From a virus (taxonomy: Duplodnaviria; Caudoviricetes), in the IMG/VR virus record IMGVR_UViG_3300025528_000017, positions 1-37,781 of that record: a stretch of 37,781 nucleotides of DNA; one strand, given 5' to 3'. Below, one piece after another: positions 5,737 through 24,315 of the stretch. A program made the translations under genes and the position numbers. The stretch's first letter is position 1. Each line of letters opens with the position of its first letter. The notes beneath the pieces were generated by a model. That model did not search any database, was not told the origin of the DNA, and worked only from the letters and a program-made list of their open reading frames with translations.

Positions 5737-8171
5737 TGTGGCCGACACCGGGTGAGGCGCTGTCGCACACGATCGATGCAGAGGCCGCGGTCGCGGATCT
5801 GTATGCGGAGGCGCTGCGACGGTGGGCGCCGCACGGGCGGGCGGCGGTGCTGCCCAGCCTCGACGCCACGGTGGTCACGGGGGAGTCGGGGATTGTGGCG
5901 TCGACGCTGCCGCCCGACCCGGATGCGTTGGAGCGGACGCAAAGCATCTGGGATGAGATCGCTGAGGCGGTGATTCTTGGCGGGCTGGGCCTGTTGTGGG
6001 CGGTGACGTTCGTGCGAGCGCGGCGTGCGCTCGGCCTGGCCGTGCCTGAATCGGGCGACGTGGACGAGGTGCTCGATACCGACAGCGTCCCGGTGGACGC
6101 GTCGGCGCTGTCGATCGTGGCCCGCGCCGCGGACGCGACGCCGACCGAAGTGCGTGAGGCCGCTGCGGCGGTCCGGGCAGTTGCTGCACCCCGTCAAGCG
6201 GTGGAAGATTTCACCGCGACGCGTCGGCAGGTCGTCTCCGCGACGCTCGGTGTGGTGCGGAAAACGGTGTCCGTCGCGGTGGCCGCAGTCCCGGAGACGA
6301 TGGCCGGCCAGGCTGCTGCGGTGCGTGCGGTGGCTGCCGACGTGCTCGACCCGGATTCGCAGCACATGCGCGATATCGCCCGCAACGAGGGCTACCAGGC
6401 CGCCGGCGTCATGAACCACGCGGTAGTGGAGGCTGCCCGCGGCTCAGATGAGGAGCTGGAGAAGACCTGGATCTGCACGATCGACGGCAAGACCCGGCCG
6501 ACACATTGGGCGGCCGATGGGCAGCGGGTGCCGCTGGACGGGAAGTTCACGATTGGCACCGAGCAGCTGGCGTATCCGGGTGATGAGTCGGCTCATCCGC
6601 GGGAGTGGAAGAACTGCCGGTGTCGGGTTGGGATTCTGGCGCCGGATGAGCCGCTGCCCGATGAGGTCGACCGGCACACTGAGCGGCTCGATGGCCGCGA
6701 CAGCGTGGTGATCCACCGGCAAGGCCGCACCCAGGCAGAGGAGATTGAGCGCCGCGCCAAGGCCGGCAATGTGCGGGCGCGTGACGACGAGGACGGGATC
6801 GGACGTGTGGCGTCCGCTGGGTGGACCGCACTGAGTGAACAGGAGTACGACATGGTCAACGAGCTGTCCGCCGACGCTGACGACACCAGCAACGACGAGA
6901 CATTCCTGACGTTCACCGACGCGCTGTTCGCGGTCACCGGTGTGCCGACGTCGGATGGGCGCATGTTGTCCGCTGACATCGACCTGTCGTTCCGTGACAC
7001 CCCGATGCCGCTGCAGTGGTGCGAGGAAATGGAGGGCGGACATCACGGATCCGTCACCGTCGGTGTTATTGAGTCGATCGCGCTCAAGGACGGTGAGGTG
7101 CGGGCGTCCGGGTACCTGCTCAACAACGAGCACGCGGTCAAGGCGATCGATCTCATCGCCCACGGTGTGTGCAACCCGTCGGTGGATCTGGGCAGCGTCG
7201 AGTGGGTGGCCACCGACGAGGACGGCAACGTCGTCACCGAGGAGAACTACGAAGACGGAATGACCGTCTATATGACGGTCACGAAAGCCGAGGTGTTGGC
7301 CACCACTATCGTGGCCATCCCGGCGTTCGGGGAGACCAGGATCGCGCTTAACGAGGAACGGGAGCACCGCGACAAGACGCTGGTCGCGTCCGCCGAGGGA
7401 TTCCGGCCGCGCGTGTACGACCCACAGATGTTCGCCGATCCGCAGTTGTCGGGTCCGACACCGATCCAGATGGACCCCGAGACCGGCCGCGTGTTCGGGC
7501 ATGTGGCGTGCTGGGCAGAACGGCACCGGTCGGTCGGGCTGGGGCACATGCACCCGCCGCGGTCGAAGTCGGGCTACGAGCATTTCCACTCCAGCCCGCC
7601 GGTGCACCTGTCGGACGGCACACTGCTGCCGGTCGGCCGGCTCACTGTGGGCACCGGTCACGCGGATACGCGGCTCGGGCCGGCCGCGGCGGCTGCTCAC
7701 TACGACAACACGGGCGCATGCTGGGCGCTGGTGCGTGCGGGTGAGGATACGCACGGGATCTGGGTGTCAGGTGTGGTGGCGCCGTGGGCGACTCCCGAGC
7801 AGGTGGAGATGGGGTTAGCGTCTCCGCTGTCCGGTGATTGGCGGCCGTTCGGCCGCGACCTGGAGCTGGTCGCGGTCTTGTCGGTGAATACCCCCGGGTT
7901 TTTGTGCCGGGGTTCGACGGACAGTCGCGGCAACCCGACAGCACTGGTCGCGTCGTTGTCACCGCGCCCGGGCGCCGACGCTTCGGCCGGCCATCTGACG
8001 CTGGCGGACATTAAGGCGGCGATGGCGGAGGCGATCGCTGAGGAACGCCGCAACCACGAGCTGGCGCAGCGGAGGGCCGAGGTCCTGGCCCGCGCCGAGC
8101 AGTCGGTCGGCGCACCGCCCAAGCCACCGACGCATGCGGATCGAGTTGCCGCGCTGCTGGAAAGGATCTGA
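5736..8171 (+). CDS. MuF-like head morphogenesis and capsid maturation protease fusion
   Basis: MuF motif KTWICTIDGKTRPTH..ADGQRVP...NCRC in the N-terminal half; prohead protease-like C-terminal half (TSDGRML, PMPL, HHGSVTVG, IVAIPAF). Confidence 0.88.
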   Translation: MWPTPGEALSHTIDAEAAVADLYAEALRRWAPHGRAAVLPSLDATVVTGESGIVASTLPPDPDALERTQSIWDEIAEAVILGGLGLLWAVTFVRARRALGLAVPESGDVDEVLDTDSVPVDASALSIVARAADATPTEVREAAAAVRAVAAPRQAVEDFTATRRQVVSATLGVVRKTVSVAVAAVPETMAGQAAAVRAVAADVLDPDSQHMRDIARNEGYQAAGVMNHAVVEAARGSDEELEKTWICTIDGKTRPTHWAADGQRVPLDGKFTIGTEQLAYPGDESAHPREWKNCRCRVGILAPDEPLPDEVDRHTERLDGRDSVVIHRQGRTQAEEIERRAKAGNVRARDDEDGIGRVASAGWTALSEQEYDMVNELSADADDTSNDETFLTFTDALFAVTGVPTSDGRMLSADIDLSFRDTPMPLQWCEEMEGGHHGSVTVGVIESIALKDGEVRASGYLLNNEHAVKAIDLIAHGVCNPSVDLGSVEWVATDEDGNVVTEENYEDGMTVYMTVTKAEVLATTIVAIPAFGETRIALNEEREHRDKTLVASAEGFRPRVYDPQMFADPQLSGPTPIQMDPETGRVFGHVACWAERHRSVGLGHMHPPRSKSGYEHFHSSPPVHLSDGTLLPVGRLTVGTGHADTRLGPAAAAAHYDNTGACWALVRAGEDTHGIWVSGVVAPWATPEQVEMGLASPLSGDWRPFGRDLELVAVLSVNTPGFLCRGSTDSRGNPTALVASLSPRPGADASAGHLTLADIKAAMAEAIAEERRNHELAQRRAEVLARAEQSVGAPPKPPTHADRVAALLERI

Positions 8172-8548: not shown

Positions 8549-8567
8549 CACCCTGTGCTCATAGCTT
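8549..8567 (+). promoter_or_regulatory. CACCC-N8-TANNNT promoter motif, leadered, major capsid
   Basis: CACCC tgtgctca TAGCTT; about 80-nt leader with AGGAG at 8641. Confidence 0.75.
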
Positions 8568-8653
8568 GTTGCGGCAGAGAGTTCCTGCTGGCTGCGGGCC
8601 GAGGGGCGATCCGACAGGCAAGGTTTCACACCTTTGAGACAGGAGTTACCGCA

Positions 8654-10402
8654 GTGAAGTTCACCCTGCCCGATCAGTTGCCCGTCACTGTCGCCGAGCT
8701 GGACGAACTAGCCGACCAGGCGACCAAAGAGATCCGCGTGTACCAGACCCGCCACGAAGCTGGCGACGAGCTGTCGGTCGAGGACGCCGAACGGTTGGAG
8801 TACCTGCTGGATTCGCGGGACAAGATCATCGCGGCCCGCGACGAGGCCGCCAGCGCCGAGCAGGACCACACCAGCCGGCTGGCCAGCCTGCTGGACCGAG
8901 CCAACGCCCCGGCCGCCGAGGAGTCTGCTGAGGACACCACCGACGCGGACAGCGACGACGCCAGCGAGTCCGGCGAGGTTATCGCCGAAGCCGAGCAGAT
9001 CACCGAGGAAGCCGCCGAGGAGCAGCAGGCGGTTGCCGCGTCCGCGCAGCGTCCCGTGACGTTCGCCGGAGCCGCACCAGCGGATCAGCTGCCTGACGCC
9101 GCGGAGAACACCGGTGAGCCTGCCAAGCGATGGGAGCTGCTGCCATCGGCGCCGCGGTACGCCAACTTCGGCACCGAGAAGGTCACCTCCCGGGAGATCG
9201 CGCTGGCGATCGATTCCGTGAAGCCCGGGCAGCGCACCGGGATGCAGCCGACCGGCCGCCGTGATCTGGCCGGCGTGGCGTTCGCCACCCAGGCGATCGC
9301 GAAGATGGAACGCCCGCACGGCACGATCATCGAAGACCCGCAGCAGCTGCACGTGGCGCTGGACCGTCTCGCCGACGAGATCCCCGGCCACGGTGCGGTG
9401 TCCGCGCAGACGCTGGTCGCATCCGGCGGCTGGTGCGCACCCAGCGAGCAGCTGTACGACTTCTGCGATACTCCGGCCGCGGCGAACCTGATCTCGCTGC
9501 CGGAGATCACGATCCGCCGTGGCGGCATCCGGTTCCCCGCCGAGCCGGATTTCTCCGAGCTGCTGACCGGGTTCCACTTCACTGAGACGGAGCTGGAAGC
9601 CACCGACCAAGACGGCAATCCGACGGCGATCAAGGATTGCGTCGAGGTGCCCTGCCCCGACGAGATGGTCGAGTACCGGCTCGAGGCGATCGGCTGGTGC
9701 GTCAAGGCCGGGATCCTGCAGCGGCAGGGTTGGCCGGAGCTGATCCAGAAGTTCATTGACGAATTCCTGGTCGCGCACCAGTACCGGGTGTCGGCGCTGA
9801 CGGTGTCAAAGATGGTTGCGGCGTCGGTGGCGAAGACCGTTCCGACCGATGCGGTGCTGGGCGCCACCTCGGGTGTGCTCAACGGTCTGCACGTGCAGGC
9901 GCGAAACCTGCAGCTCAAGGCTCGCAAGGCCACCATCGAAGGCGTCGCGCCGGTGTGGTTCCGCGACGTGCTGCGGGCCGACCTCGCCCTGCGCGAGGGC
10001 CTGGACGTGCTGGCCGTGACCGACGCGCAGATCGACAACTGGCTCGCGGTACGCGGTATCTACCTGCAGTACGAGCACACCTGGCAGTCCCTCGATGAGG
10101 GCAAGCCCGGGCACCTGGACACCACGTGGTGGCCGGACAGCGTGCAGGTGCTGCTGTACCCGGCCGGCGCGTTCTTCCGCAGCCTGGACAACGTCATCAC
10201 GCTCGGCGTCCAGTACCCGATGGAGCAGGTGCAGCAGAACCGCTATACGCACGGGTTCGTCGAGGATGCGTTCCTCGTCGGGAAGCGGTGCGACCCGTCG
10301 CTGCTGGTGACTGTGCCGTTGTGCGTCAACGGCGCTGTCGGCGCGCGGGAGCAGATCGTCTGCACAGGAGCTGACAACGGTTCGGGTGAGGGCGAAGGCT
10401 AA
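8654..10402 (+). CDS. Major capsid (hexamer) protein with N-terminal scaffold-like region
   Basis: AGGAG RBS before GTG 8654; acidic coiled-coil N-terminus; LVASGGWCAPSEQLYDFC and LPEITIRRGGIRF motifs of B-type capsids. Confidence 0.9.
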   Translation: MKFTLPDQLPVTVAELDELADQATKEIRVYQTRHEAGDELSVEDAERLEYLLDSRDKIIAARDEAASAEQDHTSRLASLLDRANAPAAEESAEDTTDADSDDASESGEVIAEAEQITEEAAEEQQAVAASAQRPVTFAGAAPADQLPDAAENTGEPAKRWELLPSAPRYANFGTEKVTSREIALAIDSVKPGQRTGMQPTGRRDLAGVAFATQAIAKMERPHGTIIEDPQQLHVALDRLADEIPGHGAVSAQTLVASGGWCAPSEQLYDFCDTPAAANLISLPEITIRRGGIRFPAEPDFSELLTGFHFTETELEATDQDGNPTAIKDCVEVPCPDEMVEYRLEAIGWCVKAGILQRQGWPELIQKFIDEFLVAHQYRVSALTVSKMVAASVAKTVPTDAVLGATSGVLNGLHVQARNLQLKARKATIEGVAPVWFRDVLRADLALREGLDVLAVTDAQIDNWLAVRGIYLQYEHTWQSLDEGKPGHLDTTWWPDSVQVLLYPAGAFFRSLDNVITLGVQYPMEQVQQNRYTHGFVEDAFLVGKRCDPSLLVTVPLCVNGAVGAREQIVCTGADNGSGEGEG

Positions 10403-10426
10403 GGCTAAGCCGGCCGCGGATGAGCG

Positions 10427-10473
10427 AGGCGGGCAGCGTGAATCTCTCCGAGGCGGTTCACGTCTGCCCGCCT
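10427..10473 (+). other. Long intergenic stem-loop between the two capsid genes
   Basis: AGGCGGGCAG-CGTGAA pairs with TTCACG-t-CTGCCCGCCT (16 bp, one bulge); no U-tract. Confidence 0.7.
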
Positions 10474-10498
10474 TCCCCAATCTGAGAGGACGGGACGT

Positions 10499-11293
10499 AT
10501 GACTACCGCGCTGATGCCGGTGCAGTTCGACGCGCCGCTGGTCAACCCAGCGCCCAACGGATTGTTCGCCGCGGTGATTTGGCAGCCGTGGGAGGGTCCG
10601 CTGCGGTTCCTCGAGGGCGTCGACATCACCGTGTTCAACTACGGCGGCGCCGAATCGTTCGGGGTGTGGCGAGCCGACTGGTGCTCCACCTCAAAGGATC
10701 TCGAGCCCACGGATGTGAAAACCGGTGAGCGTCCCACGATGCCGGACACGTTCACGGCGATGACCACCTGGGCATACGACGAGTGCGACCTGACTAAGCG
10801 CAGCCGTGAGGAGGTCCTCACCCGAGCCGAGCAGGTCCACCGGCTGCAGGAACCCAACGCCGCCGAAACCGAGTTCGCCACCCGTCTTTTGGCTGATGCG
10901 GGTGCCGCCGACCCGGCCGCCGACATCACCGCCGCGCTGGCCGCATTGGAGGCTGGGTTGGCGCGCACCAACACCGTAGGCGTGATTCACGCCGGTGCGC
11001 AGTGGGCGGCGCCGGCGGCGCAAGCCGGGCTGATCGTCCGTTCCGGCGCCGGGCTCAAGACACCGCTGGGTCATACGTGGGTGTTCGGCGGTGGCTACGT
11101 CGATGCGCTCGACGATGTGTTGGTGGCGACGTCCCCGGTGTTGGGGTGGCGCGGCCCGGTCGAGGTGCGCGATGCGATGGTGCTGAAGCGCAACCGGTTC
11201 GGAGCGATCGCGGAGCGGTCTCTGGTGCTCGGTTACGAATCCGTGATCGGCGCGGCGGAGATCACGCAGGATCAGGGAAGCGACGTGGAGTGA
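10499..11293 (+). CDS. Major capsid pentamer protein (B-type second capsid protein)
   Basis: 264 aa directly after the hexamer gene, GAGAGGA RBS, TPLGHTWVFGGGY motif; assignment by synteny with cluster B phages. Confidence 0.75.
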   Translation: MTTALMPVQFDAPLVNPAPNGLFAAVIWQPWEGPLRFLEGVDITVFNYGGAESFGVWRADWCSTSKDLEPTDVKTGERPTMPDTFTAMTTWAYDECDLTKRSREEVLTRAEQVHRLQEPNAAETEFATRLLADAGAADPAADITAALAALEAGLARTNTVGVIHAGAQWAAPAAQAGLIVRSGAGLKTPLGHTWVFGGGYVDALDDVLVATSPVLGWRGPVEVRDAMVLKRNRFGAIAERSLVLGYESVIGAAEITQDQGSDVE

Positions 11294-11294
11294 C

Positions 11295-11654
11295 ATGCCT
11301 GCCGGTGTTGAGGTCACCGTCGTTGACGGGTTCGCCACGATCGATTTCGTGGACCGGTCCAAACGGGGACCAGGGCTGGCGGCGCTGCTCGAGGTGTGCG
11401 GCCCGGATCTGGTGCAGACGCTGACCCGGGAGGGCCCGCGACGGCTGTACCGGGTGCCGGAGGGCAACGCTCGAGCAGCGGGGCTGCTCGACGTACCAGC
11501 GCAGCCCGCTCCGACCGCGCCGGATCGCCGTGCGCCCGACGACAGCTGGAGCCGCGCGGAGTTGAACGCGTACGCGGTCAGCATCGGCATCGAATCACCG
11601 GAGAAGCTACGAAGCAAGGAAGCGGTCCTCAACGCGATCAGACACGCCGGGTGA
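11295..11654 (+). CDS. Head-associated hypothetical protein with C-terminal HeH/Rho-N-like helical module
   Basis: WSRAELNAYAVSIGI...SKEAVLNAI pattern; tightly packed after the pentamer gene. Confidence 0.75.
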   Translation: MPAGVEVTVVDGFATIDFVDRSKRGPGLAALLEVCGPDLVQTLTREGPRRLYRVPEGNARAAGLLDVPAQPAPTAPDRRAPDDSWSRAELNAYAVSIGIESPEKLRSKEAVLNAIRHAG

Positions 11655-11663
11655 GGTGTCACC

Positions 11664-12074
11664 GTGACGTGGCGACTGGTCCGCGATGACGCGCTGCAGT
11701 TCGTTCAGCTCTACCTGCTGGCCGTGGCCGTGGTTCGCGGCGTCGACTATCTCATCACCCCACCCGGGTCGTCGGCGGTCTTGTACTTCATCGAGCGCGC
11801 CGCGCCGCTGCCGGTGTGGGCGCTGATGTTCATCACCCTCGGCATCGTCGGCATAGCCGGGGAATGGTGGATCGGCTTCGGCGCCAGCCCGCATCGGTGG
11901 CTGGCGTCCTACGTAGCGCACGCCGCGCTGGCCAGCGTCTACACCGCCGTCGGCGTCGGTGCGCTGATCGAAATCTTCAGCCGACAACCGATCTACGGAT
12001 TCCGCACCCCTGTCGAATGGCTGCTCCTCGCAGCCATGCACGCGATATTCGTGCGGAGGAGAGAGCGTGTCTGA
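11664..12074 (+). CDS. Membrane protein with about 4 TM helices (holin-like)
   Basis: Four hydrophobic segments, basic C-terminus (RRRERV), GAGGTG RBS. Confidence 0.75.
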   Translation: MTWRLVRDDALQFVQLYLLAVAVVRGVDYLITPPGSSAVLYFIERAAPLPVWALMFITLGIVGIAGEWWIGFGASPHRWLASYVAHAALASVYTAVGVGALIEIFSRQPIYGFRTPVEWLLLAAMHAIFVRRRERV

Positions 12075-12555
12075 CCCGGAACGCGTGTTGTTGTCGGACC
12101 TCCCGCCATCCCTGCTGCTGATTCTCGCGATCGTGGTGTTCCTGGCATACACGCTGCCGCGAATCGCGGAAGCATCAGAGGCGGCGGCCAAACTGCTCGG
12201 ACCGATCGGCCGGTACTGGCGCGAACGAGGATTGACCCGCGCTGAACAGCGCCGCGCCGAAGTGCAGCGTGAAGCCCGCCAGTTGGCGAAAGCGATTGTC
12301 GCCGAGGTCACCCCGCCGGACTACGCCGAGATGGAACGCCGGCTGGCAAACATGGACCGCCGGATCAAGGTGCTCGAAGAATCCGATCAAATTCAGCGGG
12401 CCTACATCATCTACGACGAGCACTGGCACTTCGCCGACGAGATGGCCGCTGTCCGAAACCCCGAATGCACACCGGCGCCCAGGTACACGTTCGACCAGTT
12501 CAAGGAGCGGTGGCGCCAGGGCTGGCGGCCCGGCCGGCCATCCCCACAGCACTGA
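12067..12555 (+). CDS. Single-TM membrane protein with coiled coil
   Basis: N-terminal hydrophobic helix followed by a charged helical region; overlaps the upstream gene. Confidence 0.8.
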   Translation: MSDPERVLLSDLPPSLLLILAIVVFLAYTLPRIAEASEAAAKLLGPIGRYWRERGLTRAEQRRAEVQREARQLAKAIVAEVTPPDYAEMERRLANMDRRIKVLEESDQIQRAYIIYDEHWHFADEMAAVRNPECTPAPRYTFDQFKERWRQGWRPGRPSPQH

Positions 12556-12566
12556 CCGGTCGGATG

Positions 12567-12585
12567 CACCCACCCCTCTTACTGT
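12567..12585 (+). promoter_or_regulatory. CACCC-N8-TANNNT promoter motif, leadered, major tail
   Basis: CACCC acccctct TACTGT; leader carries an AGGAGG RBS before ATG 12653. Confidence 0.75.
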
Positions 12586-12652
12586 GCGGATCAGCCTCGG
12601 AGCACCTGAACACCCGGCGCGCAGCGCCCCATAGCAGGAGGACAGCCAGCAC

Positions 12653-13483
12653 ATGGCTCATGCAGTCGTCAAGGGCTACAAGCTCCGCGCAACCAAGGTG
12701 GATTCGTGCGGGCTTCCGATCGAGGGGCCAGCGAACCGGCTCGTCACCGACGGTTTCATCCGAGTGAACCTCGACCCAAACATGCGGGACGCGGAGGAGA
12801 TCGAGCAGGCCAACGCCGCCGGCGAGATTTGCGTCGCTGACCGCACCCCGCCGGAGCGGAAGTGGTGGAACACCGAAATCCAGCTGTGCCGGGTTGATCC
12901 GGACCTCTACGCGCTGGTCGCGTCCTGGGCTCGGGTGCTCGACTACGACGGCAAGCCCATCGGCTTTCGGGACCGCGCCAAGGTCGACACCGATACCGGT
13001 GTGATGTTCGAGCTGTGGACTGGCGGCGACGGCGACGACGACTGCCCGCCGCCGGAGGACGACTCGATCTTCTCCGCGGCGGCTTCCGGACGCCAGTACG
13101 GCTACGTGGCGTTCGCAGGCACGGAGTTCGTATCCGGCCCGCTGACGGTGGAAGCTGCGGCGTCGACGTTCACCCTCACGGGTCGCACGATCGCCCCGAA
13201 GAACTGGGGTCGCGGACCGTACAACGTCGCGGCGATCAACGGGTCCGGCGCGGCGGGTCGGCTGCTGGTGCCGGCCTACGACCCGGACGATGACAACCAC
13301 ATCGTGCACTTCCGCACACCGGTCGCGCCGCCGGAGGTCACCGACGGCGCTGTGCCGCTGGACATCACCAGCACCTTCACGCCCCCGAACTACTACTTCG
13401 GCGGCCCGGGCGGTGAGCCGGCCGCGGACGTGGCGCCGGACCAGCCCGACAACGGTTCCGGTGAGGGTGAGGGCGAAGGATAG
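12653..13483 (+). CDS. Major tail (tube) protein
   Basis: Strong RBS; VKGYKLRATKVDSCG, NAAGEICV and WGRGPYNV resemble B-type major tail proteins; position fits. Confidence 0.88.
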   Translation: MAHAVVKGYKLRATKVDSCGLPIEGPANRLVTDGFIRVNLDPNMRDAEEIEQANAAGEICVADRTPPERKWWNTEIQLCRVDPDLYALVASWARVLDYDGKPIGFRDRAKVDTDTGVMFELWTGGDGDDDCPPPEDDSIFSAAASGRQYGYVAFAGTEFVSGPLTVEAAASTFTLTGRTIAPKNWGRGPYNVAAINGSGAAGRLLVPAYDPDDDNHIVHFRTPVAPPEVTDGAVPLDITSTFTPPNYYFGGPGGEPAADVAPDQPDNGSGEGEGEG

Positions 13484-13500
13484 CCCTGGCCCGCCCGCAG

Positions 13501-14112
13501 GTGACTGAACGGCGGCCGGACACGCTGCTCATGCTCAGCGGGGGCATCGACTCCGCATACTGCCTGTGGCAGCGTGTCCGCGCCGGCCAGTACACCCGTA
13601 CGCACCACGTGTCGTTGGCCGATCACGAAGGCCGGCGCGACGTGGAGGACCGCGCCGTGCAGCAGATCCTGGACTGGATGCGCCGCAACGGTGGCGAGGG
13701 TCTGATCGAGCACACCAGCTCGGCCATGGATTTTCGGGACATGTGGATCCCGAAGAACTTTCACGCCTGGGCTTATTGGGCCGGCGCGATCATGGCCTCA
13801 CCGCGCGGCCAGTCGATCACCACTGTGATCCTGCCCCGGCATTCCGACGCGTTCCGCGGCGGACCCAACTCGCCCGGCGCCCGGAAGTCCGACGCCGCAT
13901 ACCGCGGACACATCAAGCTCATCTGCGGACGCGAGCCGAGGCTGTCGCTGCCGATGGCGCATCTGACGAAGGCCGAAGCGGTGGCGGCGATGCCGGAGGA
14001 TCTGCTGCGGCTGTGCTGGTGGTGCCGACGACCCCGCGCTGGTCAGCCGTGCCACAAGTGCATGACCTGCCGCCAGGTCGATCCAGCATTGGCCGCACGC
14101 TGGCGGCGTTGA
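13501..14112 (+). CDS. QueC-like PP-loop ATPase (7-cyano-7-deazaguanine synthase family, divergent)
   Basis: LLMLSGGIDS PP-loop, PMAHLTKAE, and C-x8-C-x2-C-x2-C Zn site (CRRPRAGQPCHKCMTC). Lacks the canonical YPDC motif. Confidence 0.85.
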   Translation: MTERRPDTLLMLSGGIDSAYCLWQRVRAGQYTRTHHVSLADHEGRRDVEDRAVQQILDWMRRNGGEGLIEHTSSAMDFRDMWIPKNFHAWAYWAGAIMASPRGQSITTVILPRHSDAFRGGPNSPGARKSDAAYRGHIKLICGREPRLSLPMAHLTKAEAVAAMPEDLLRLCWWCRRPRAGQPCHKCMTCRQVDPALAARWRR

Positions 14113-14113
14113 G

Positions 14114-14132
14114 CACCCTCGGTTCGTACCGT
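14114..14132 (+). promoter_or_regulatory. CACCC-N8-TANNNT promoter motif, leaderless, adaptor
   Basis: CACCC tcggttcg TACCGT, 7 nt to ATG 14140. Confidence 0.75.
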
Positions 14133-14139
14133 GAGCGCC

Positions 14140-14898
14140 ATGTCGTGCGACTGGCCAATCGACCGGGCATGCCTGCCCGAGCCTCCGAATCTCGGCGACG
14201 AGCCGACACCTGAGGAGCAGGCCGCCTACGACCTGGCGGTCGCGCAGCGGTCCTCAGCTGAGGACCTGGCCGTGCACGTCCTGTGGGCGCTATCGGGGCG
14301 GCAATTCGGGGTGTGTGAGGCCACGGTGCGGCCATGCCCGCCGTTGGGATATCCGCGGTCGACGTCGATAGCACTCTGGGACGGAACCGGCTGGGCGACT
14401 GCGGGTTGCGGCTGCGTCGGCAACTGTGTGCGGTCGGGTCCGTCGATGGTGCATCTGCCTGGCCCGGTCGCGACGCCGACCGACGACCACCCGCTCGAGG
14501 TCACCATCGCCGGGGAAACCCTCGACCCGGCCGAGTACGTGGTCGAGGGCGATGTCTTGTACCGGGGCGGCGGCAAGTCCTGGCCGGGCCAGAATCTCGC
14601 CCGCCCACTCGGTGAGTCTGGCACATGGTCGGTGACCTACTGGCGCGGTACCCCGGTACCTCCCGGCGTCGACAGGTTGACCGGACTGCTGGCCAAGGAG
14701 TTCCTGGCCGCCTGCCACGGTGATGAGAAGTGCCGCCTGCCGCGCAACGTCGCCCAGATCGCCCGCCAGGGCGTGACATACCGCTACGAGCTGGCGTCGG
14801 TCATCCACGCGGCCGGCAAGACCGGATTACCGGAGGTTGATCTGTGGCTGGCGGCGGTCAACCCCAATAAGCTGGCGGCGGGACCGGTGGTGCTGTGA
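14140..14898 (+). CDS. Head-to-tail adaptor
   Basis: LWALSGRQFGVC..TVRPC, LAKEFLAAC..CRLP, RQGVT and TGLPEVDLWL motifs; position fits. Confidence 0.8.
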   Translation: MSCDWPIDRACLPEPPNLGDEPTPEEQAAYDLAVAQRSSAEDLAVHVLWALSGRQFGVCEATVRPCPPLGYPRSTSIALWDGTGWATAGCGCVGNCVRSGPSMVHLPGPVATPTDDHPLEVTIAGETLDPAEYVVEGDVLYRGGGKSWPGQNLARPLGESGTWSVTYWRGTPVPPGVDRLTGLLAKEFLAACHGDEKCRLPRNVAQIARQGVTYRYELASVIHAAGKTGLPEVDLWLAAVNPNKLAAGPVVL

Positions 14899-15428
14899 CC
14901 GCGCCCCACTGCGTCGATGACGCCAGCGCGGTGGTGAACCAGTTCATCTCGTCCATGCTCAAGGCGTTCGACCCCAACTCGGAGTGCCCACCGCTGGGTG
15001 GCGGGTCGACCACAGTGCGGTTCTTCGCCGGAGATGGTGCTCTGCCATCGTGGAACCCGCACGGAACCGGCTGCGACGAGCCGATGCTGTGGGTGCGGGT
15101 CGCGCACCGCTATCGATCGAAAATCGGGTCGTTTCCAACCGCCTATGTGGGTGACGCATCCTGCGGTAACGCTGACATACGCCGGGCGTTGGCGGTGGAG
15201 GTCGGGGTCGGCCGGTGCACCACGATGGACGCCAACCCGGATTGGGACACTCTGTCGCAGGAAGCCGAGATCAGCTTGGACGACTCGTGGCGGATCGAGC
15301 AAGTCCTGTGCCACGCGGCGAAGCGTCTCCAATCGCCGCAGCGTGCAGTGGCCATCGATACGGTCGCACCGTTCGGGCCCGAAGGCGGACTGATCGCATG
15401 GACAGGCATGGCATACGTCCAACTGTGA
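14895..15428 (+). CDS. Head-tail connector / tail terminator-like protein
   Basis: GTGA overlap with the adaptor; size and position; GPEGGLIAW motif. Confidence 0.6.
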   Translation: MTAPHCVDDASAVVNQFISSMLKAFDPNSECPPLGGGSTTVRFFAGDGALPSWNPHGTGCDEPMLWVRVAHRYRSKIGSFPTAYVGDASCGNADIRRALAVEVGVGRCTTMDANPDWDTLSQEAEISLDDSWRIEQVLCHAAKRLQSPQRAVAIDTVAPFGPEGGLIAWTGMAYVQL

Positions 15429-15438
15429 GGAGCAAACG

Positions 15439-15831
15439 ATGGCGCAGCACGTGACGATCGAGGGAAGCAGGATCACCCCGTCGGACGCGTTGGGCCGCGG
15501 CGAGCGGCGCACCGTGGAACTGACCGACCGCGTGCGACGGTTGATCGCGATCGGCGCCGTCGTGGTCGTTGACGACAATCCGGCTACCGAACCGGTGGAG
15601 CAGGCCGACAGCACGCCAGACGGTGGAGGACTGCTGCCGCCGGGCCCGAACCTCGCTGACTCTGCCGATCTGACGCCGCTCGAACCGCTCATGATCGAGC
15701 CGCCGGCACTCAACGCCAGCCGGCGCGCCTGGGCGGAGTTTCTGACCAGCCGCGGCATCGAGTTCGATGATGATGCGATCCGCGACGACCTGATCGAGAT
15801 CTGGGAGAACCACTCAGGTGGCGACGGTTAG
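15439..15831 (+). CDS. Hypothetical virion-region protein with C-terminal HeH-like module
   Basis: GAGGAG RBS; PPALNASRRAWAEFL...RDDLIEIW. Confidence 0.75.
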   Translation: MAQHVTIEGSRITPSDALGRGERRTVELTDRVRRLIAIGAVVVVDDNPATEPVEQADSTPDGGGLLPPGPNLADSADLTPLEPLMIEPPALNASRRAWAEFLTSRGIEFDDDAIRDDLIEIWENHSGGDG

Positions 15832-16222
15832 AGTCACCTTCCGGCTCGATGAGGCCGCGCTCGATAGCGAGGTCGAGTCGATCGGGCGGCGGCGGCTGGC
15901 GTCGCTGCAGCGCCGCATCGCCACCCAGGCCCGCGCCGACGTTCCGGTGCTGACCGGCCACCTGGGCCGCTCTATCCGGGAGCTTCCGATCAAGGTGTCG
16001 GGGCCACGGGTGGTCACTGGTGGGGTGGAGGCGACCGCCGACTACGCGGCCCCCGTCCATGAAGGCTCGGCGGCGCATGTGATTCGGCCGCGCAAGGCCA
16101 AGGCGTTGCGGTTCCAGATCGGTGGCCGCACGGTGTTCGCCCGGATGGTGCGGCATCCTGGGACGAAGGCACGGCCATTCCTGCGTAACGCGGCCCAGCG
16201 CATCGCTTCCCAAGAGCGCTGA
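15818..16222 (+). CDS. HK97 gp10-like neck / tail completion protein
   Basis: PVLTGHLGRSI, YAAPVHEG and HPGTKARPFLRNA motifs. Confidence 0.8.
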   Translation: MATVRVTFRLDEAALDSEVESIGRRRLASLQRRIATQARADVPVLTGHLGRSIRELPIKVSGPRVVTGGVEATADYAAPVHEGSAAHVIRPRKAKALRFQIGGRTVFARMVRHPGTKARPFLRNAAQRIASQER

Positions 16223-16231
16223 CTGCTGTTG

Positions 16232-16250
16232 CACCCGGGGTCGGCAGGCT
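16232..16250 (+). promoter_or_regulatory. CACCC-N8-(-10) promoter motif, leaderless, chaperone
   Basis: CACCC ggggtcgg CAGGCT, 7 nt to ATG 16258; -10 imperfect. Confidence 0.6.
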
Positions 16251-16257
16251 ACGAGCC

Positions 16258-16755
16258 ATGACCACGTTTGCCTCGGACGGAACCCCCAAACCTGAACCTG
16301 CAGAGCCCCAGCCGGCCGCCGACCCGTCGACCGTCGAGCCTGTCCCGGCCGCCGTCCCCGCGGCCAGCGGCGCCGACACCGGCGAATCGCTGCCCGCTGT
16401 GCAGACCGCAAACACCGACGTCGCCGTCCCGGAGGATGACTGGCCGCACGACTGGCTCGAGTTCAAGGGCGACACGCTCGCCGTTCGCGTCCCGACCCCA
16501 CAGGCTATGGCCGCGCTCTCCCAAGGGCTCGGAAAGTTCATCCCACCGCAGGAGCAGAACGACATCAGCGGGTTGTTCATCGCCCGCCACCTGTCCCCGC
16601 AGGCGTATGCGCGGGTGTTCTCTCGGCTGATGGACCCAGACGACGCCGACTACGACCCGAACACGATCGGGGAGCTCGTCGCGGCGCTGCTCAACGCCGG
16701 TGTGGAGAAGTACAAGCAGCAGACGTGCTCAGCAAATCCAGAGACCTCGGAGTAG
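16258..16755 (+). CDS. Tail assembly chaperone (G-like)
   Basis: Immediately upstream of the tape measure gene; acidic, 165 aa. Confidence 0.75.
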   Translation: MTTFASDGTPKPEPAEPQPAADPSTVEPVPAAVPAASGADTGESLPAVQTANTDVAVPEDDWPHDWLEFKGDTLAVRVPTPQAMAALSQGLGKFIPPQEQNDISGLFIARHLSPQAYARVFSRLMDPDDADYDPNTIGELVAALLNAGVEKYKQQTCSANPETSE

Positions 16756-16774
16756 CACCCTGTCTCGCTAGCTT
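16756..16774 (+). promoter_or_regulatory. CACCC-N8-TANNNT promoter motif, leaderless, tape measure
   Basis: CACCC tgtctcgc TAGCTT, 6 nt to GTG 16781; fills the 25-nt intergenic gap, which has no RBS. Confidence 0.75.
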
Positions 16775-16780
16775 GACCGC

Positions 16781-19700
16781 GTGACCACGCCCGTCGGATC
16801 GATTCGCCTTGACCTGTCGATTGACGGGTCGAACCTGGGTGACGAGATCACCGCGGCGGTTCAAAAGCATGTGAAGGCCGCGCTCAGCGACCTCACCAAG
16901 CTGTTGAGTGAGGTGCAGGCGCAAATGGAATCCACCAGCCGCGCCAGCACATCCGTCGCTTCCGGGGTCGAGCATGCGGGAAAAGCTGCCCGCGAAGCCG
17001 CCGGCGGCATGAGCGACATGCAGCAGGCCAGCCAGGCCGCGGCCCAAGCCACCAAGACTGCCGGAGACGCAGCCCGCGCCGCCGGCAGTGGCATGGACGA
17101 CATGGGCCGCGCCAGTGACAAAGCTGCGGATAGCACCAGCAAGGCCGGTCGTGCTGCCAGCCAGGCAGGAAACGAGGTCGGGCGGTTCACCAATGCCGCG
17201 GAACGCGCGGCGTCGGTGAGTAAACAGCTCGGCGACGGGATGCGTAACACCGCGTCGGGGTTCGTGCGTGCCGGAGACGCGGTGCTGGGCGCGGTCGGCA
17301 AGTTCGCCAAGTGGACCGGCATCGGCGCCGCCGTGTCGGGCGCGATCGGTGGTGTGGCAGGCAGTTTCAGCGTGCTGCAGCTCGGCATGAATCGGCTCAC
17401 CTCGATCGAGAACGCGCGATCCACGCTGCAAGGGCTCGGTCACGACGCGCGAAGCGTCGAGGGCATCATGGATTCCGCGCTCACCGCGGTGAAGGGCACC
17501 GCGTTCGGGCTGGGCGAGGCTGCTACCGTGGCCGCCTCCGCGGTGGCCGCCGGTGTCCAGCCCGGCGAGGATCTGACCCGCACCCTCAAGTTGGTCGGTG
17601 ACGCCGCCGCGATCGCCAAGACCGACATGCAGTCGATGGGCGCGATCTTCAACAAGGTCGCCACATCGAACGAGGTGCGGGGCGAGGTCATGGCGCAGCT
17701 GCACAACCGAGGCATCCCGATCCTGCAGCTACTGAGCGAGGAAATCGGCAAGACCGCTGAGGAAACCGCGAAGATGGCCTCGGACGGCAAGATCGATTTC
17801 GAGACGTTCCGCAACGCCATCGAACGCGGCATGGGCGGCGCGGCGCTCAAGGCCGGCGAAACCTTCGAAGGCGCGATGGCGAACATGAGGGCCGCGCTCG
17901 GCCGGCTGGGCGCCGAGATCCTCAAGGGCCCGTTCGAGTCCGCACCCGCGGTGATCGGCCGAGTCACCGAAGGCATCGACGTGGCCACCGACGCGGTCAA
18001 GGGCATGGTCAGCTACCTGCGCACCGGTGAGGTGACCGACACGTTCCGGGATGTGTTCGGCCGCGGCGACATGGCTCGCCGGGTGCTGGCTGGACTTGAG
18101 CGGGTGCGGACGGTGGCGAGGCAGGTCCGCGACGGGTTCGAGGAACTGCAGGCCGCGTGGCGCGGCGACGATGGAGCGGCAGACTGGGCGACGAAAGCCG
18201 TCGATTTCGTTCGGGACTCGCTGGCGCGGGTGTGGAATATCGCAAAGCAGCTCGGGCCAGCGCTCGCCGGTATCGCCGCGTCATTCGCCAAAGCATCCGC
18301 CGCAGTGGGTGTCTCGGCGTGGACGATCTTCCTGGGCGCGGCCGAGTCGTTGGTGCCGATCCTGACGATGGTTGCGGACCTGATGCAACGCCACGAGGGT
18401 GTGGTGGTCGCGCTGGTGGCCGCGTATGCGCTGCTCAAAACTGGGTTTATCGGAGCAGCCGTGGCTGCCAAGGGCCTCGCGGTCATCAAAACGGTTACTG
18501 GCTGGATGACGGGCCTGATCGGTGTGACCACCGCAGCTGGCACGGCCATGTCCACGACGCTCACGACGGTTGCGACCGACGCTGATGGGCTCGGGAGCTC
18601 GATGGGTGGGCTAGGAGAGCGCACGAAGAAAGGCATGCGCGAGACCCTGCGCAGCCTGAAGGCTTTGCGCGGTGAGATCGGCACGACGATGCTCATGGCC
18701 GGGACAGCCGCCACCGCGACGAGTAGCGGTATCGCCCAGACCGTCGGCGCACTGTCCAGCGTCGCGGGAGGTGCGCTGGCTGGCAGCATCTTCGGGCCGG
18801 GAGGTGCGGCTATCGGCGCGGGCATCGGCGGCGGGATAGCGTTGGCGTCGTATCTGCTGGGCGAGAACGCGCGGGCTGCACGCGCGGCGGCGGCCGCGCA
18901 AGCTGAGCTCGCAGAGCAGATCCAACGTGCCAAAGAGGCACAGCTGGCATCCCTGGGGGTTCAGAAGGAACTCAACGCGGCGCTGCTGGAGTCGGCCGGT
19001 GTCGTTGACGAAGCCGCGGTTGCAGCGGTCGCCCGGACCATCGACAACCTTCCCGAGATGCTCAGAGGGCGGCTGAGCGACGACCAGATCCAAGGTGTCG
19101 TCGAGTCGATCCAAAAGCTCGGGGTGTCGTCAGAAAGTCTTGCCTCGCAGCTGACCCGGGGCGGCCCGGCCCTGGACGCCACTCTGGCGGCCCTACGGGC
19201 ATTGGGCCCGGACGGTGAGCGTGCCGCAGATGCAATTCTCGGCGTCGCTGCCCGGTTCGATCATGCCCGGACTCGAGCTGAGGCGGCCGCCCCAGCCTTG
19301 TCCGAGATGGCGCAGAAGATGGGCGTGGACGTACTGCAGGCGGCCGACGACCTGTCGGTGGCGTTGAAGGCTGTCCCACAGAACATCCCGCTGAACATGG
19401 ACATGCCCGGCGCCGAAGCGCTGGTGGGGTTGCTCCGCGAGGCGGGCGCGGCGGTGGAGGTGCTGGGCGACGGCACCCTCCATCTCGACGTCAACGATGA
19501 GAAGGTTCGAAACGCGATCACGGTTGTTGACAGCCTCGGCTGGGCGATCAAGCAGGTTCCCGACACCAAGCAGATCGAGATCACTGTCAAGACTGACGAA
19601 GCAGCGCTGCAGCGGTTCATCTCGCAGATGACCACCGAAATGCAGAAATTCACGACACTGTGGATCACCCCTCAGCTGACGGGCGAAATTCCCGCCGGAC

Positions 19701-22700: not shown

Positions 22701-22882
22701 CTGAGCGGGTGCTGTCGCCGCGACAAACCGAGCTGTTCGAGCGGATGGTCGCTGCACTGGAACGCAACCCGCGCGCCGCCACCGGTTCGACCACCATCGT
22801 TGACGTCGGAGGTATCACCGTGGCCGGAGGGCCGGAGGCCGGTGAGCGGGTGCGCGCTGGACTCATGGAGCTGATGCACTGA
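16781..22882 (+). CDS. Tape measure protein (2033 aa) with embedded putative peptidoglycan peptidase motif
   Basis: Longest ORF, Ala/Gly-rich; tape-measure domain (SALTAVKGTAFGLGEAATVAA); DHPSGRAIDI...HFDHIH motif. Confidence 0.95.
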   Translation: MTTPVGSIRLDLSIDGSNLGDEITAAVQKHVKAALSDLTKLLSEVQAQMESTSRASTSVASGVEHAGKAAREAAGGMSDMQQASQAAAQATKTAGDAARAAGSGMDDMGRASDKAADSTSKAGRAASQAGNEVGRFTNAAERAASVSKQLGDGMRNTASGFVRAGDAVLGAVGKFAKWTGIGAAVSGAIGGVAGSFSVLQLGMNRLTSIENARSTLQGLGHDARSVEGIMDSALTAVKGTAFGLGEAATVAASAVAAGVQPGEDLTRTLKLVGDAAAIAKTDMQSMGAIFNKVATSNEVRGEVMAQLHNRGIPILQLLSEEIGKTAEETAKMASDGKIDFETFRNAIERGMGGAALKAGETFEGAMANMRAALGRLGAEILKGPFESAPAVIGRVTEGIDVATDAVKGMVSYLRTGEVTDTFRDVFGRGDMARRVLAGLERVRTVARQVRDGFEELQAAWRGDDGAADWATKAVDFVRDSLARVWNIAKQLGPALAGIAASFAKASAAVGVSAWTIFLGAAESLVPILTMVADLMQRHEGVVVALVAAYALLKTGFIGAAVAAKGLAVIKTVTGWMTGLIGVTTAAGTAMSTTLTTVATDADGLGSSMGGLGERTKKGMRETLRSLKALRGEIGTTMLMAGTAATATSSGIAQTVGALSSVAGGALAGSIFGPGGAAIGAGIGGGIALASYLLGENARAARAAAAAQAELAEQIQRAKEAQLASLGVQKELNAALLESAGVVDEAAVAAVARTIDNLPEMLRGRLSDDQIQGVVESIQKLGVSSESLASQLTRGGPALDATLAALRALGPDGERAADAILGVAARFDHARTRAEAAAPALSEMAQKMGVDVLQAADDLSVALKAVPQNIPLNMDMPGAEALVGLLREAGAAVEVLGDGTLHLDVNDEKVRNAITVVDSLGWAIKQVPDTKQIEITVKTDEAALQRFISQMTTEMQKFTTLWITPQLTGEIPAGQPRPNPTTGGNALDPGFFIPGGRADGGVLPGYSPGRDNMLVPLSGGEGIIIPEAMRALGGSWLYQLNSRFRPGISRRGYADGGVHRGSGALPGPVFDTRDDDEPLKLLEDIRDLLAGAGPTTAPLNVTAREVSTLADRAVGRMAGMTPGGTGPFGTPIAPRHRGYEMAAAAISALGGDPEKWLGAEPVSYWRERINESVQAVQQATSAMGPVVADMGRYVEALQEFARTGDLSAVQGVGLSATDSVITAITSARNKKTDRLSDTEIGALIEQTLGPSGYVGVLDERNASLVKSLQSFRDKIAKGSGTMTGGALVAGLPAHTGAATFSTSGLMPATAALGQAVLQMFPQIREIGGYRQDPHPDHPSGRAIDIMIPGGTTRGGRNPAGEALGDQIWNWLMSTGIVDPKGSLWKTDVGGDHFDHIHARIAEGMENAAIQAGLIPAAAGTPAASLGGLSATGGATPVFVTNWPGTGGMGMPPGLQPILDAAAQGSGEAASNVLGDVMSAVAGLGQEDWAKRDASYATLNKLVRDRNPLALAAALGLDVEDFTRQGGGHGDITANDGPGYDSSGRLYSDTAALLDRTFTSLNAQLAAMRDQMVSVIEQVSHKLNDAALEPIVKAGVQSALEGLKDSVSHAIGTAMGQAAAPPIADAVRQGMASLPIATSGGDSGGNAFSGLIPGMASGGPVYGGVAGRDSVPALLMPGEHVLTTDDVARLGGQSGVYAFRAALARTGGVRGFATGGAVVNDVVGAEFFGVSQIPIIGLIVNILIRVLLSVLGVQIQARDTLLQMTDEFRQFRGDFQAFDASGRLLNDTSALVDRAQSSEEMAAQERIRILKIVIEALIRYIIEKVIVPIGKAVANAAISAGASAAGAAINTQAPGVGGIVSSLITAAGSAGVDIVAEIGTDLALAISETVIAVVAEGLQSLFPDLMTTIFGGGLLSMLLDPIGNILGNTFGGLLGGITSLLAGLFGGAATLIPGLPFDRGGIAYGTGLMPKATIAPERVLSPRQTELFERMVAALERNPRAATGSTTIVDVGGITVAGGPEAGERVRAGLMELMH

Positions 22883-24315
22883 TGGCCTATCGCGGATGGT
22901 TCGCCCTCAACGGTGTGGAGTTCGCCAACACCGCGCGGGTTGTCGCGCACCTGGGGCGAGACGTCCCCACCAGCGACCTGGGCATCTTCACGCAGGCTGC
23001 CGCGGATTGCGGACTGGTCGAATCCACCGAGTACCCAGGCCTGTACGAGCTCCCGGACACCGCCACCGAGGTCGCGCCCGGGTTGTGGGCCCCGCCCAAC
23101 GGTGCGCGCCGCTACGGGCCTGGGCTTCTCGAATTCGACGGCACCTGCTGGGGACCGGCCGCCATCTGCTCGTCGTGCTCCACCCACGTCGCCTATGACG
23201 ATTCATGGCCGGGGCTTCGGGAGTTCCTCGGCGACACGATGTACCGGCCGGAGCTGGCGCCCTGGTACACCACACAGCTGCCGGAGTCCGGCGAGTTCGG
23301 CGGCGTGTGGGTGATGAAGGTTGACGGGCTGGGCCCGACACCGGTGGAGCGCACGGTCACGCAGATGGCCGGCTCCGGGGCGGCGGCAGGTCCGTCCCGC
23401 GACGCATCCCGCACCGTGACGTTTGAGGCGCTGCTGATCGGCTGCACCCATGTCGGCGTCGAATACGGGCTGGACTGGCTGACGTGTCTGCTGCGAGACA
23501 CCAACACCGATACCGGATCCACGCTGCGTTATCTGGCGGCCTCCCCGTCATATTCGGGTGTGGACCCGGCGACGCTGGTGCGCGAGGTGCACAACGTCGT
23601 CCTGACGAAGGCGCCGACGATATCGCAGGAGTTCAACACCGAGCCGCGGGCGCATCAGCAGGCCACGATGTACCGGGTCACCTGGGAGATGGCTGTGCTC
23701 AGTCCGTATGCGTATCTGCCGGCTGTCCCGGTCGTGGTGGATTGGGACGAGATCGTCCGCCAGCCGATCAACTGGGTGCATGCCGCGGATTGCCGGCGGC
23801 CGGAGACGTGTGAGGACATGCCGACGCTGTTCTCGACGGAGTGTGTTCCGGTGGAGATCGCGGTGGTGACCACGCCGCCGCCGGTGTGTGGTGGCTGCCT
23901 GCCGGTCGGGGAGATCGACAAGTATTCGTTCCGGGTGCCGACGATGGAGTACGCGTTCCGGTGCCGGGAGACCGCGGTGACCACGATCATCCGGAATCTC
24001 GGAGAGGCGCCGCTGACGTTGCAGGCGTTCTGGCGCGAGTGCGGTTCGGATATCCGGTGTGAGGACAACCGGTTTCCGCTGCAGGTGGCGGGTTTGCCGC
24101 CGACCGCGGAGCTGCACTTGGACGGGATCACCGGCCGGTATTGGGCGCACTACGACGGCCGGAAACGCCGCGTCGTCGGAGTGGTCGGCACGCCGAACGG
24201 TGCGCCGTGGCGGCCCCCGATCATCGACCGTGAAACGTGCTGGGACTTCATCGTTCAAACCGCCAGCAGCAGCAAGTTCGAGGTCGAGATGATTCTCTAC
24301 GACCGGGAGCCGTGA
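22882..24315 (+). CDS. Minor tail protein (distal tail-like)
   Basis: First gene after the tape measure, TGATG overlap, 477 aa. Confidence 0.85.
   Translation: MAYRGWFALNGVEFANTARVVAHLGRDVPTSDLGIFTQAAADCGLVESTEYPGLYELPDTATEVAPGLWAPPNGARRYGPGLLEFDGTCWGPAAICSSCSTHVAYDDSWPGLREFLGDTMYRPELAPWYTTQLPESGEFGGVWVMKVDGLGPTPVERTVTQMAGSGAAAGPSRDASRTVTFEALLIGCTHVGVEYGLDWLTCLLRDTNTDTGSTLRYLAASPSYSGVDPATLVREVHNVVLTKAPTISQEFNTEPRAHQQATMYRVTWEMAVLSPYAYLPAVPVVVDWDEIVRQPINWVHAADCRRPETCEDMPTLFSTECVPVEIAVVTTPPPVCGGCLPVGEIDKYSFRVPTMEYAFRCRETAVTTIIRNLGEAPLTLQAFWRECGSDIRCEDNRFPLQVAGLPPTAELHLDGITGRYWAHYDGRKRRVVGVVGTPNGAPWRPPIIDRETCWDFIVQTASSSKFEVEMILYDREP

Follow-up and report, generated by a model that had tools for sequence, protein, structure and literature searches.

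A QueC-fold enzyme encoded among phage virion genes covaries with glycine-glutamate tags on capsid and tail proteins

INTRODUCTION

QueC activates a carboxylate by adenylation and then adds ammonia, whereas in Cap9 of type IV CBASS a protein N-terminal amine is used instead, as set out in the available text of PMC13279940. The tyrosine and the aspartate of the QueC motif YPDC recognise the deazaguanine ring according to the same text, and Y35, R99, Y131 and Y189 are given as essential residues of E. coli QueC in the available part of PMC13329287. As far as these two texts go, Cap9 keeps the CDG-binding tyrosine and aspartate as well as the RN and YxQ motifs, and acylates an N-terminal glycine (PMC13329287, PMC13279940). 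QatC, from the qatABCD system, has a QueC core with a remodelled pocket and an inferred protein substrate (PMC13279940); it is about 430 aa long with extensions, carries a C-x19 variant of the zinc motif and has QatB as a partner (PMC13329287). In another subfamily of PP-loop enzymes, peptide carboxylates are converted to amides or nitriles, with ATP-dependent activation of the carboxylate described for PesC, TsrC and ScdTA; PesC-type enzymes are asparagine-synthetase-like, act on the C-terminal carboxylate of RiPPs and use Gln (10.64898/2026.03.11.711119).

On the side of the virion, the accessible portions of two papers describe that Che8, Corndog and Myrna encode enzymes that glycosylate capsid and tail-tube proteins and thereby shield the particle from antibodies (PMC12363180), and that the extensions which Bxb1 has on both capsid and tail lie on the outside and are dispensable (PMC8704799). 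Here we analysed a 37,781-nucleotide stretch of viral DNA (the window) that encodes a QueC-fold enzyme directly behind a tail gene. The covariation of this enzyme with C-terminal Gly-Glu tags on virion proteins is the new result of this study. The literature searched, in which subscription papers were thinly covered, held no account of the tag or of the enzyme subfamily: the passages on Muddy in the capsid-structure preprint are silent about its C-terminal tag, the accessible parts of 10.1101/2022.09.09.507160 and PMC11965321 contain nothing on it, and the available family-survey text of PMC13329287 describes no cluster with the motifs of this enzyme family.

RESULTS

Gene neighbourhood

The window corresponds to the arm of a temperate mycobacterial siphophage that carries the structural and lysis genes, and its gene order matches prophiT49-1, GodPhather and Dori. 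A prophage in the lysogen genome G730 encodes an enzyme protein 100% identical to that of the window; the other arm of this prophage holds a repressor, an antirepressor, RecET, RusA and a replication initiator. The ends of the prophage copy differ from those of the window, and a serine resolvase/invertase gene lies near its terminase end (L302:3476-4045). Enzyme matches were found in 1 of 401 genomes of the order and in 4 of 400 of the genus (one genome unscored), which is consistent with a prophage gene. The following genes and putative signals surround the enzyme:

8555..10402, + strand: major capsid (hexamer) protein gene, predicted substrate (phrog_777; start codon uncertain)
10499..11293, + strand: gene in the capsid pentamer protein slot (phrog_779; untagged, ends QDQGSDVE)
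12580..12585, + strand: putative -10 hexamer TACTGT ahead of the tail gene (motif match only)
12653..13483, + strand: major tail protein gene, predicted substrate (phrog_792)
14127..14132, + strand: putative -10 hexamer TACCGT ahead of the head-tail adaptor gene (motif match only; ATG 14140 follows after 7 nt)

The enzyme gene starts 17 nt past the tail gene, as an earlier note on this DNA had stated (tail stop at 13483, enzyme start at 13501). The note also regarded tail and enzyme as a two-gene unit, with separate promoters before it and behind it. This remains plausible: both hexamers could be located, and Dori, prophiT49-1 and L006 have similar ones at the same places as 12580 and 14127, but a sigma-70 scan of 10300-16800 returned neither promoters nor terminators. 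A gap of 7 nt between hexamer and ATG is a leaderless-type spacing. TACCGT stands 7-8 nt before the start codons of three late genes (window 3413, 3852 and 14127), a spacing that suggests leaderless promoters. A contig from an RNA library covers 13175-14200, and was set aside as evidence of expression because DNA carry-over is possible. Further downstream, two overlapping ORFs after the tape measure gene (22882-25352; phrog_838, and positions 337-676 of phrog_837) are possibly a split or frameshifted minor tail gene.

Fold and motifs of the enzyme

The enzyme gene and its two diagnostic motifs are located as follows:

13501..14112, + strand: QueC-fold PP-loop/zinc enzyme, predicted tag writer (GTG start, 203 aa)
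13537..13554, + strand: SGGIDS pyrophosphate loop, residues 13-18 (SGGxDS in 41/41 aligned homologs)
14023..14070, + strand: C-x8-C-x2-C-x2-C zinc motif, C175-C190 (four cysteines in 41/41 rows)

That this ORF encodes a QueC-like protein with both motifs intact had been noted before and is borne out here by their conservation in every aligned homolog. The protein scores 26.5 bits against Pfam QueC, just over the cut-off of 22, and 16.2 bits against the NCBIfam QueC equivalog TIGR00364, whose cut-off is 150.3; it matches phrog_1550 with an E value of 2.5e-42. A model from a 41-sequence alignment reached a pLDDT of 96.7. Among solved structures it is closest to Cap9 (PDB 9NTO; Z 17.9, with 171 residues at an rmsd of 2.7 A), followed by B. 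subtilis QueC (Z 16.2, with 176 residues at 3.7 A), both at 14-15% identity; by Foldseek the two are nearly level, and QatC is matched as well (TM 0.66-0.67). Sequence searches of the PDB with the enzyme and with the tail protein gave no match.

Canonical QueC and the enzyme share the fold, SGGxDS, C-x8-CxxCxxC and the family-conserved residues K157 (QueC K165) and E49 (QueC E42). However, their identity is 14-18%, the enzyme gene sits among virion genes with no pathway neighbours, and the QueC motifs YxQxHxxE, VPxRN and YPDC occur in none of 41 aligned homologs and none of 144 further representatives. In a profile alignment to E. coli QueC none of Y35, R99, Y131 and Y189 is kept in the window enzyme; the place of Y189 is occupied by R176, an arginine found in 40/41 homologs. 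IPKN stands opposite VPGRN and GPNS opposite YPDC. The loss of both motifs had been described correctly, with IPKN named as the altered form, but IPKN itself is not conserved in the family (K85 in 15/41, N86 in 28/41). H114 is kept in 40/41 homologs, but the YxDC after it is absent; H35-H36, W90 and W173 are invariant in the family and new relative to QueC. Since the ATP and zinc motifs are kept while the essential QueC residues and YPDC are gone, it seems likely from sequence that the enzyme keeps ATP activation and has lost CDG binding.

The modelled protein resembles Cap9 in its minimal size and fold, and might likewise be a QueC-fold enzyme directed at protein. Unlike Cap9, it lacks the H-x4-YxDC, RN and Y/FxQ-x5-E motifs, no CD-NTase was found among 40 window and 33 prophage-arm ORFs, no CDG source was found, the genes beside it encode tail and adaptor proteins, and what covaries with it is a Glu tag at the C-terminus. 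It has in common with QatC a QueC core with a remodelled pocket, but differs in its 203 aa, its C-x8 motif and the lack of a qatA/B/D context. The enzyme belongs to neither QueC, Cap9 nor QatC.

Purifying selection acts on the gene, with dN/dS values of about 0.12-0.33 in comparisons with three homologs (dS near saturation), and its GC and GC3 equal those of its neighbours. The protein is basic (pI 9.8), as are 35/44 homologs with a pI above 8; this would suit an acidic substrate, although basic proteins are frequent in genomes of this kind. The wider family has 2949 representatives matching at E 0.001, and its nearest atlas clusters are mostly viral. Longer fused forms were absent among 7997 candidates of 617-2000 aa, a result of little weight, and tandem and ATP-grasp fusions are present among the 150 best profile matches (tandem double domains in P0045, P0103-P0107 and P0164; a fused ATP-grasp domain in P0074). 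Many homologs carry an additional small domain fused to their C-terminus (L014, L015, L017, L036, L038; P0029-P0053), either with an HVGGGWY motif, SAP-like, or resembling window ORF 15439-15831; in other phages this domain is a stand-alone post-capsid gene.

C-terminal tags

Two proteins encoded in the window end in tags:

10373..10399, + strand: capsid C-terminal tag DNGSGEGEG (enzyme gene 3.1 kb downstream)
13448..13480, + strand: tail C-terminal tag DNGSGEGEGEG (absent from close enzyme-less tail relatives)

Across the carriers the conserved element is a Gly-rich linker followed by Gly-Glu repeats, and the DNGS part is not conserved. Muddy ends its capsid protein with GGGSGEGEGESE and its tail protein with GGGGEGEGEGE, the PIS136 capsid protein ends with STGEGEGEGGEGGEG, and in DS6A capsid and tail both finish in long GE runs. 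Very long GE runs are found on the capsid, pentamer-slot and tail proteins of L305; the pentamer-slot gene is tagged in L006 and L008 too, unlike the window copy. L014 and L015 have weaker variants such as GGEGEEV and GGENGGEV. The tags contain no lysine, several are free of serine or threonine (among them the Muddy and L006 tail tags), and the last residue is G, E, A, V or I. Hence the side-chain carboxylates of glutamate are the only reactive groups that all tags share. Most tags are encoded by mixed synonymous codons. GEGE tags resemble tubulin tails. As to background, 9 of 363 distinct long ORFs have at least two GE within their last 16 residues, and 8 of these 9 are capsid or tail proteins of enzyme carriers.

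The enzyme often starts within about 20 nt of a tag stop codon or overlaps it, and the adjoining tag DNA may double as a ribosome-binding site. Such a role cannot account for the remote tags; the DS6A enzyme (gene 2), for example, is separated from both tagged genes by 7-10 kb. In Muddy the enzyme frame is open back into the tail tag and contains an in-frame GTG there (L007:9976-10030), so that gene 16 probably begins earlier than annotated, the annotated start lying within the ATP-loop strand.

Tags in carriers of the enzyme

Enzyme matches by tblastn were restricted to 11 of 50,697 phage records, namely the Muddy group (8), DS6A (2) and PIS136 (1), of which the C-termini of Muddy, DS6A and PIS136 were inspected. 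Close homologs, with about 39% identity or more, came from 24 loci after merging of duplicate contigs, and four fragments that had no recognisable capsid or tail gene (L013, L038, L041 and L043) were excluded. Of the 20 assessable loci, 17 have G/E-rich tags, borne by capsid or tail genes or by the immediately preceding gene: the window, L305, L006, L008, L007, L010, L011, L003, L012, L039, L014, L015, L016, L017, L036, L037 and L042. In the last three the tag is borne by an upstream gene without a capsid or tail assignment. The tagged proteins span at least four capsid families (phrog_777, phrog_10, phrog_247 and the Muddy/DS6A type) and at least four tail families (phrog_792, 117, 885 and 3884). 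In the enzyme tree the Muddy copy groups with that of the window (95/93) though their virion genes are unrelated, which indicates that the enzyme gene has moved between virion lineages and that tags were re-established on non-homologous proteins.

Three enzyme loci are untagged (L009, L025 and L306). L009 is a complete provirus (G006) with a 62% identical enzyme, no GEGE-coding matches and a tail protein ending in VVLGGGG. L025 and L306 are near-identical small chromosomal elements whose capsids end in SDDGSS; with a capsid gene, a 47-49% identical enzyme, no tag and no tail gene seen, they have a satellite-like look. Distant family members (21-38% identity) have no tags in their flanks, and we therefore restrict the covariation to the close subfamily.

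In the PIS136 clade the tags are partly internal. A RimK/cyanophycin-synthetase-like ATP-grasp gene directly follows the enzyme in this clade (L003:10705-11454, L012:6161-6910, L039:4182-4976), a point of likeness to RimK ATP-grasp ligases; this partner possibly performs a second, chain-extending step.

The enzyme in tagged and untagged relatives

On the side of the virion, we surveyed 78 IMG/VR loci of the window's tail family, drawn from the best 80 of 94 relatives. Four tails are tagged; three of these loci carry the enzyme, and the contig of the fourth stops 18 codons into the enzyme gene. Among the 74 untagged loci none carries the enzyme within the flank fetched, which was mostly searched within 7 kb (the tail end is missing from L194 and L195, and for at least six loci the downstream DNA is shorter than 1.3 kb). 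Five untagged neighbours were searched as whole records; four were blank, and G467 (L197), an untagged sister of the PIS136 clade, was rejected as a carrier, its PP-loop match being weak (E 5.4e-4, positions 4-51). On a tree of 50 tail proteins with less than 90% identity, the combined state of tag and enzyme needs four changes, at least three of them forced by starred branches.

None of nine named relatives without an enzyme tblastn match has GE repeats (NoShow, JacoRen57, ReT1v-2, prophiT49-1, GodPhather, Dori, Phlyer, LilSpotty and Sparky). Dori and the window form a matched pair, the Dori tail ending in DVAPDQPAQTP and the window tail in DVAPDQPDNGSGEGEGEG. NoShow and JacoRen57 are 75-78% identical to Muddy and have neither tag nor enzyme gene, and LilSpotty and Sparky are the nearest tail and capsid relatives of DS6A. 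The capsid of Sparky is 70% identical to that of DS6A, but its capsid and tail both end in GGGS and it has two annotated glycosyltransferases (L309:4501-5469 and 7181-7843; L310:45586-47738); it is likely that these form a virion-glycosylation cassette in the slot of the DS6A GE tags. L269-L271 share the capsid end of L017 but stop at AAGGE or AADGE, and no enzyme match was found in them. None of the 21 loci found through the fused small domain gave an enzyme match, and a crowded-out scan with the Muddy-type tail alignment gave eight loci, none tagged and one cut before the tail end.

Longer C-terminal extensions of the LTGG type on capsid and tail are common in enzyme-less relatives (L135, L137, L139, L158, L162, L176, L182 and L188). 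Since these are paired as well, capsid and tail ends covary in several ways in the window's family; as a guess, the LTGG-type extension has an Ig-like fold. Two tag-pattern scans of IMG/VR (70 and 42 loci) returned mostly out-of-frame or unrelated matches, and tags on capsid plus tail only in enzyme-bearing contigs or a truncated sibling. Single in-frame (GE)n ends without the enzyme belong to a baseplate hub family and to other proteins of unrelated viruses, and a giant-virus bin has several paralogs with such ends; in five unrelated records with (GE)n ends that were searched whole, three of them near-complete, the enzyme was absent. Co-occurrence of tag and enzyme across phages had been put forward in the earlier note as a check on its proposal, and we find the two gained and lost together in unrelated virion families.

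Search for a deazaguanine pathway

Profiles for folE, queD, radical-SAM and tgt families gave no match in the window, in agreement with what had been noted from the sequence alone. The same profiles (TGT, QueD, FolE, radical-SAM) gave no match in five enzyme-bearing virus records, four of them complete (Muddy, DS6A, G008 and G006); in control genomes they were positive in 10-14 of 14, although a very divergent DpdA could escape PF01702. The lysogen genomes G730 and G775 have one full-length TGT each and no QueD or QueC match, and of 61 genomes sampled from the genus only 8 gave a QueD-family match. Deazaguanine genes elsewhere in the genome had been named as a finding that would speak against a protein modifier; among 33 ORFs scanned in the other arm of the G730 prophage, mostly of at least 110 aa, there were neither deazaguanine nor glycosyltransferase families.

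DISCUSSION

The covariation over unrelated virion families supports the earlier proposal that the enzyme acts on the GEGEG tags. We consider it probable, judging from these sequence patterns, that it adenylates the glutamate side chains of the tags and couples them to a nitrogen nucleophile, so coating the virion. In such a mechanism the QueC-fold enzyme, with ATP, would adenylate the tag glutamates, as may be expected from QueC chemistry, and each activated glutamate would then be joined to the nucleophile. The tag would be the acyl donor, the reverse of the polarity in Cap9, and the modified tags would cover the virion surface, probably as a shield. It might be possible that the nucleophile is ammonia, giving an amide and possibly a nitrile as in QueC; we put this forward only tentatively, and it is weakened because a change from Glu to Gln could simply be encoded in the gene. 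Another small host amine is a somewhat more doubtful candidate, and a nitrogen from a protein amine or the backbone, with a cross-link or an imide as the product, is rather improbable. Adenylation, the timing of expression and the benefit of the enzyme are what we infer for it.

An acidic tag could instead serve as a docking handle for a basic enzyme (pI 9.8) whose chemistry happens elsewhere, or could have an assembly role with the tag itself left unmodified. Within this unlikely alternative, the enzyme might acylate the N-terminal amine of a virion protein with a small carboxylic acid, as Cap9 does; the closest fold is indeed that of Cap9 (Z 17.9), which according to the available text of PMC13279940 acylates a protein N-terminus, and several homologs are fused to small domains of the post-capsid virion region. 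However, the inspected tagged proteins have no common N-terminal Gly motif (they begin MAH, MAGF, MTAP and MADV), the YxD substrate-binding pair is missing and no donor-acid pathway is nearby. It is still less probable that the tags are an independent feature of the surface and the enzyme a hitchhiking moron that uses purine-rich tag DNA as a ribosome-binding site. Close or overlapping starts at tag stop codons and the (GE)n ends that exist without the enzyme would be expected from this, but the second and third tags lie kilobases off, the DS6A enzyme gene is remote from both of its tags, and no enzyme-less tag was found in the tail family among the best 80 of 94 relatives.

The two remaining readings concern known relatives of the fold, and we give both very little credence. 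An anti-defence role against QueC-family immunity (Qat, type IV CBASS), either as an inhibitor or as the decoy that had been suggested as an alternative, finds no support beyond the structural kinship with Cap9 and QatC: the catalytic motifs are invariant, the tags would be left unexplained, and the window protein has no QatC or Cap9 model match in NCBIfam or PADLOC. Least credible of all is that the enzyme makes preQ0 or ADG for the modification of DNA or tRNA. The Pfam match, the names in databases (queuosine enzymes) and the single full-length TGT of the lysogen genome, about 120 kb from the enzyme gene, speak for it, but the equivalog score is far below its cut-off, the three QueC motifs are missing from every homolog compared, pathway genes were not found in the complete carriers, and QueD-family matches are rare among the sampled genomes of the genus. 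The view that the enzyme is not a preQ0 synthase is thus supported, as the pathway was not found in complete carriers and the substrate motifs are absent.

Returning to an enzyme that modifies the tags, glycosylation cassettes offer a parallel, since they too pair capsid and tail C-terminal tags that covary with a phage enzyme. In mycobacteriophage glycosylation (Freeman et al. 2023) the acceptor is reportedly a C-terminal serine. Here the predicted writer is not a glycosyltransferase, of which none was found among the scanned ORFs, and the Muddy and L006 tail tags have no hydroxyl residue. The tags probably fill the surface slot that in other mycobacteriophages is taken by glycosylation or by Ig-like extensions, and the most likely mode is a virion-coating cassette with a new writer and a new tag. 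As a further step, for which we see slightly less than an even chance, this could be a mobile writer-and-tag system, interchangeable with glycosylation cassettes, that gives hundreds of surface glutamates a group that cannot be encoded (a nitrile, an amine adduct or an isopeptide) and thus a second, sugar-free virion-coating chemistry, on Muddy too.

If true, virions would have a surface coating of a kind not described before, made by a post-translational chemistry that is new on them, and the QueC fold would have a third use directed at proteins, this time with the polarity reversed and on the side of the phage. It would also give a function to Muddy gene 16 and DS6A gene 2, now named hypothetical or queuosine enzymes. 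The reading is cheaply testable, as Muddy can be grown on M. smegmatis and a structure of its capsid is available (8EDU), and a short portable tag with a 200-aa writer could become a tool for site-specific protein labelling. Muddy is a clinically used phage, as stated in the accessible portion of PMC12363180, and how antibodies recognise such phages, how stable they are and how host defences sense them may depend on their surface.
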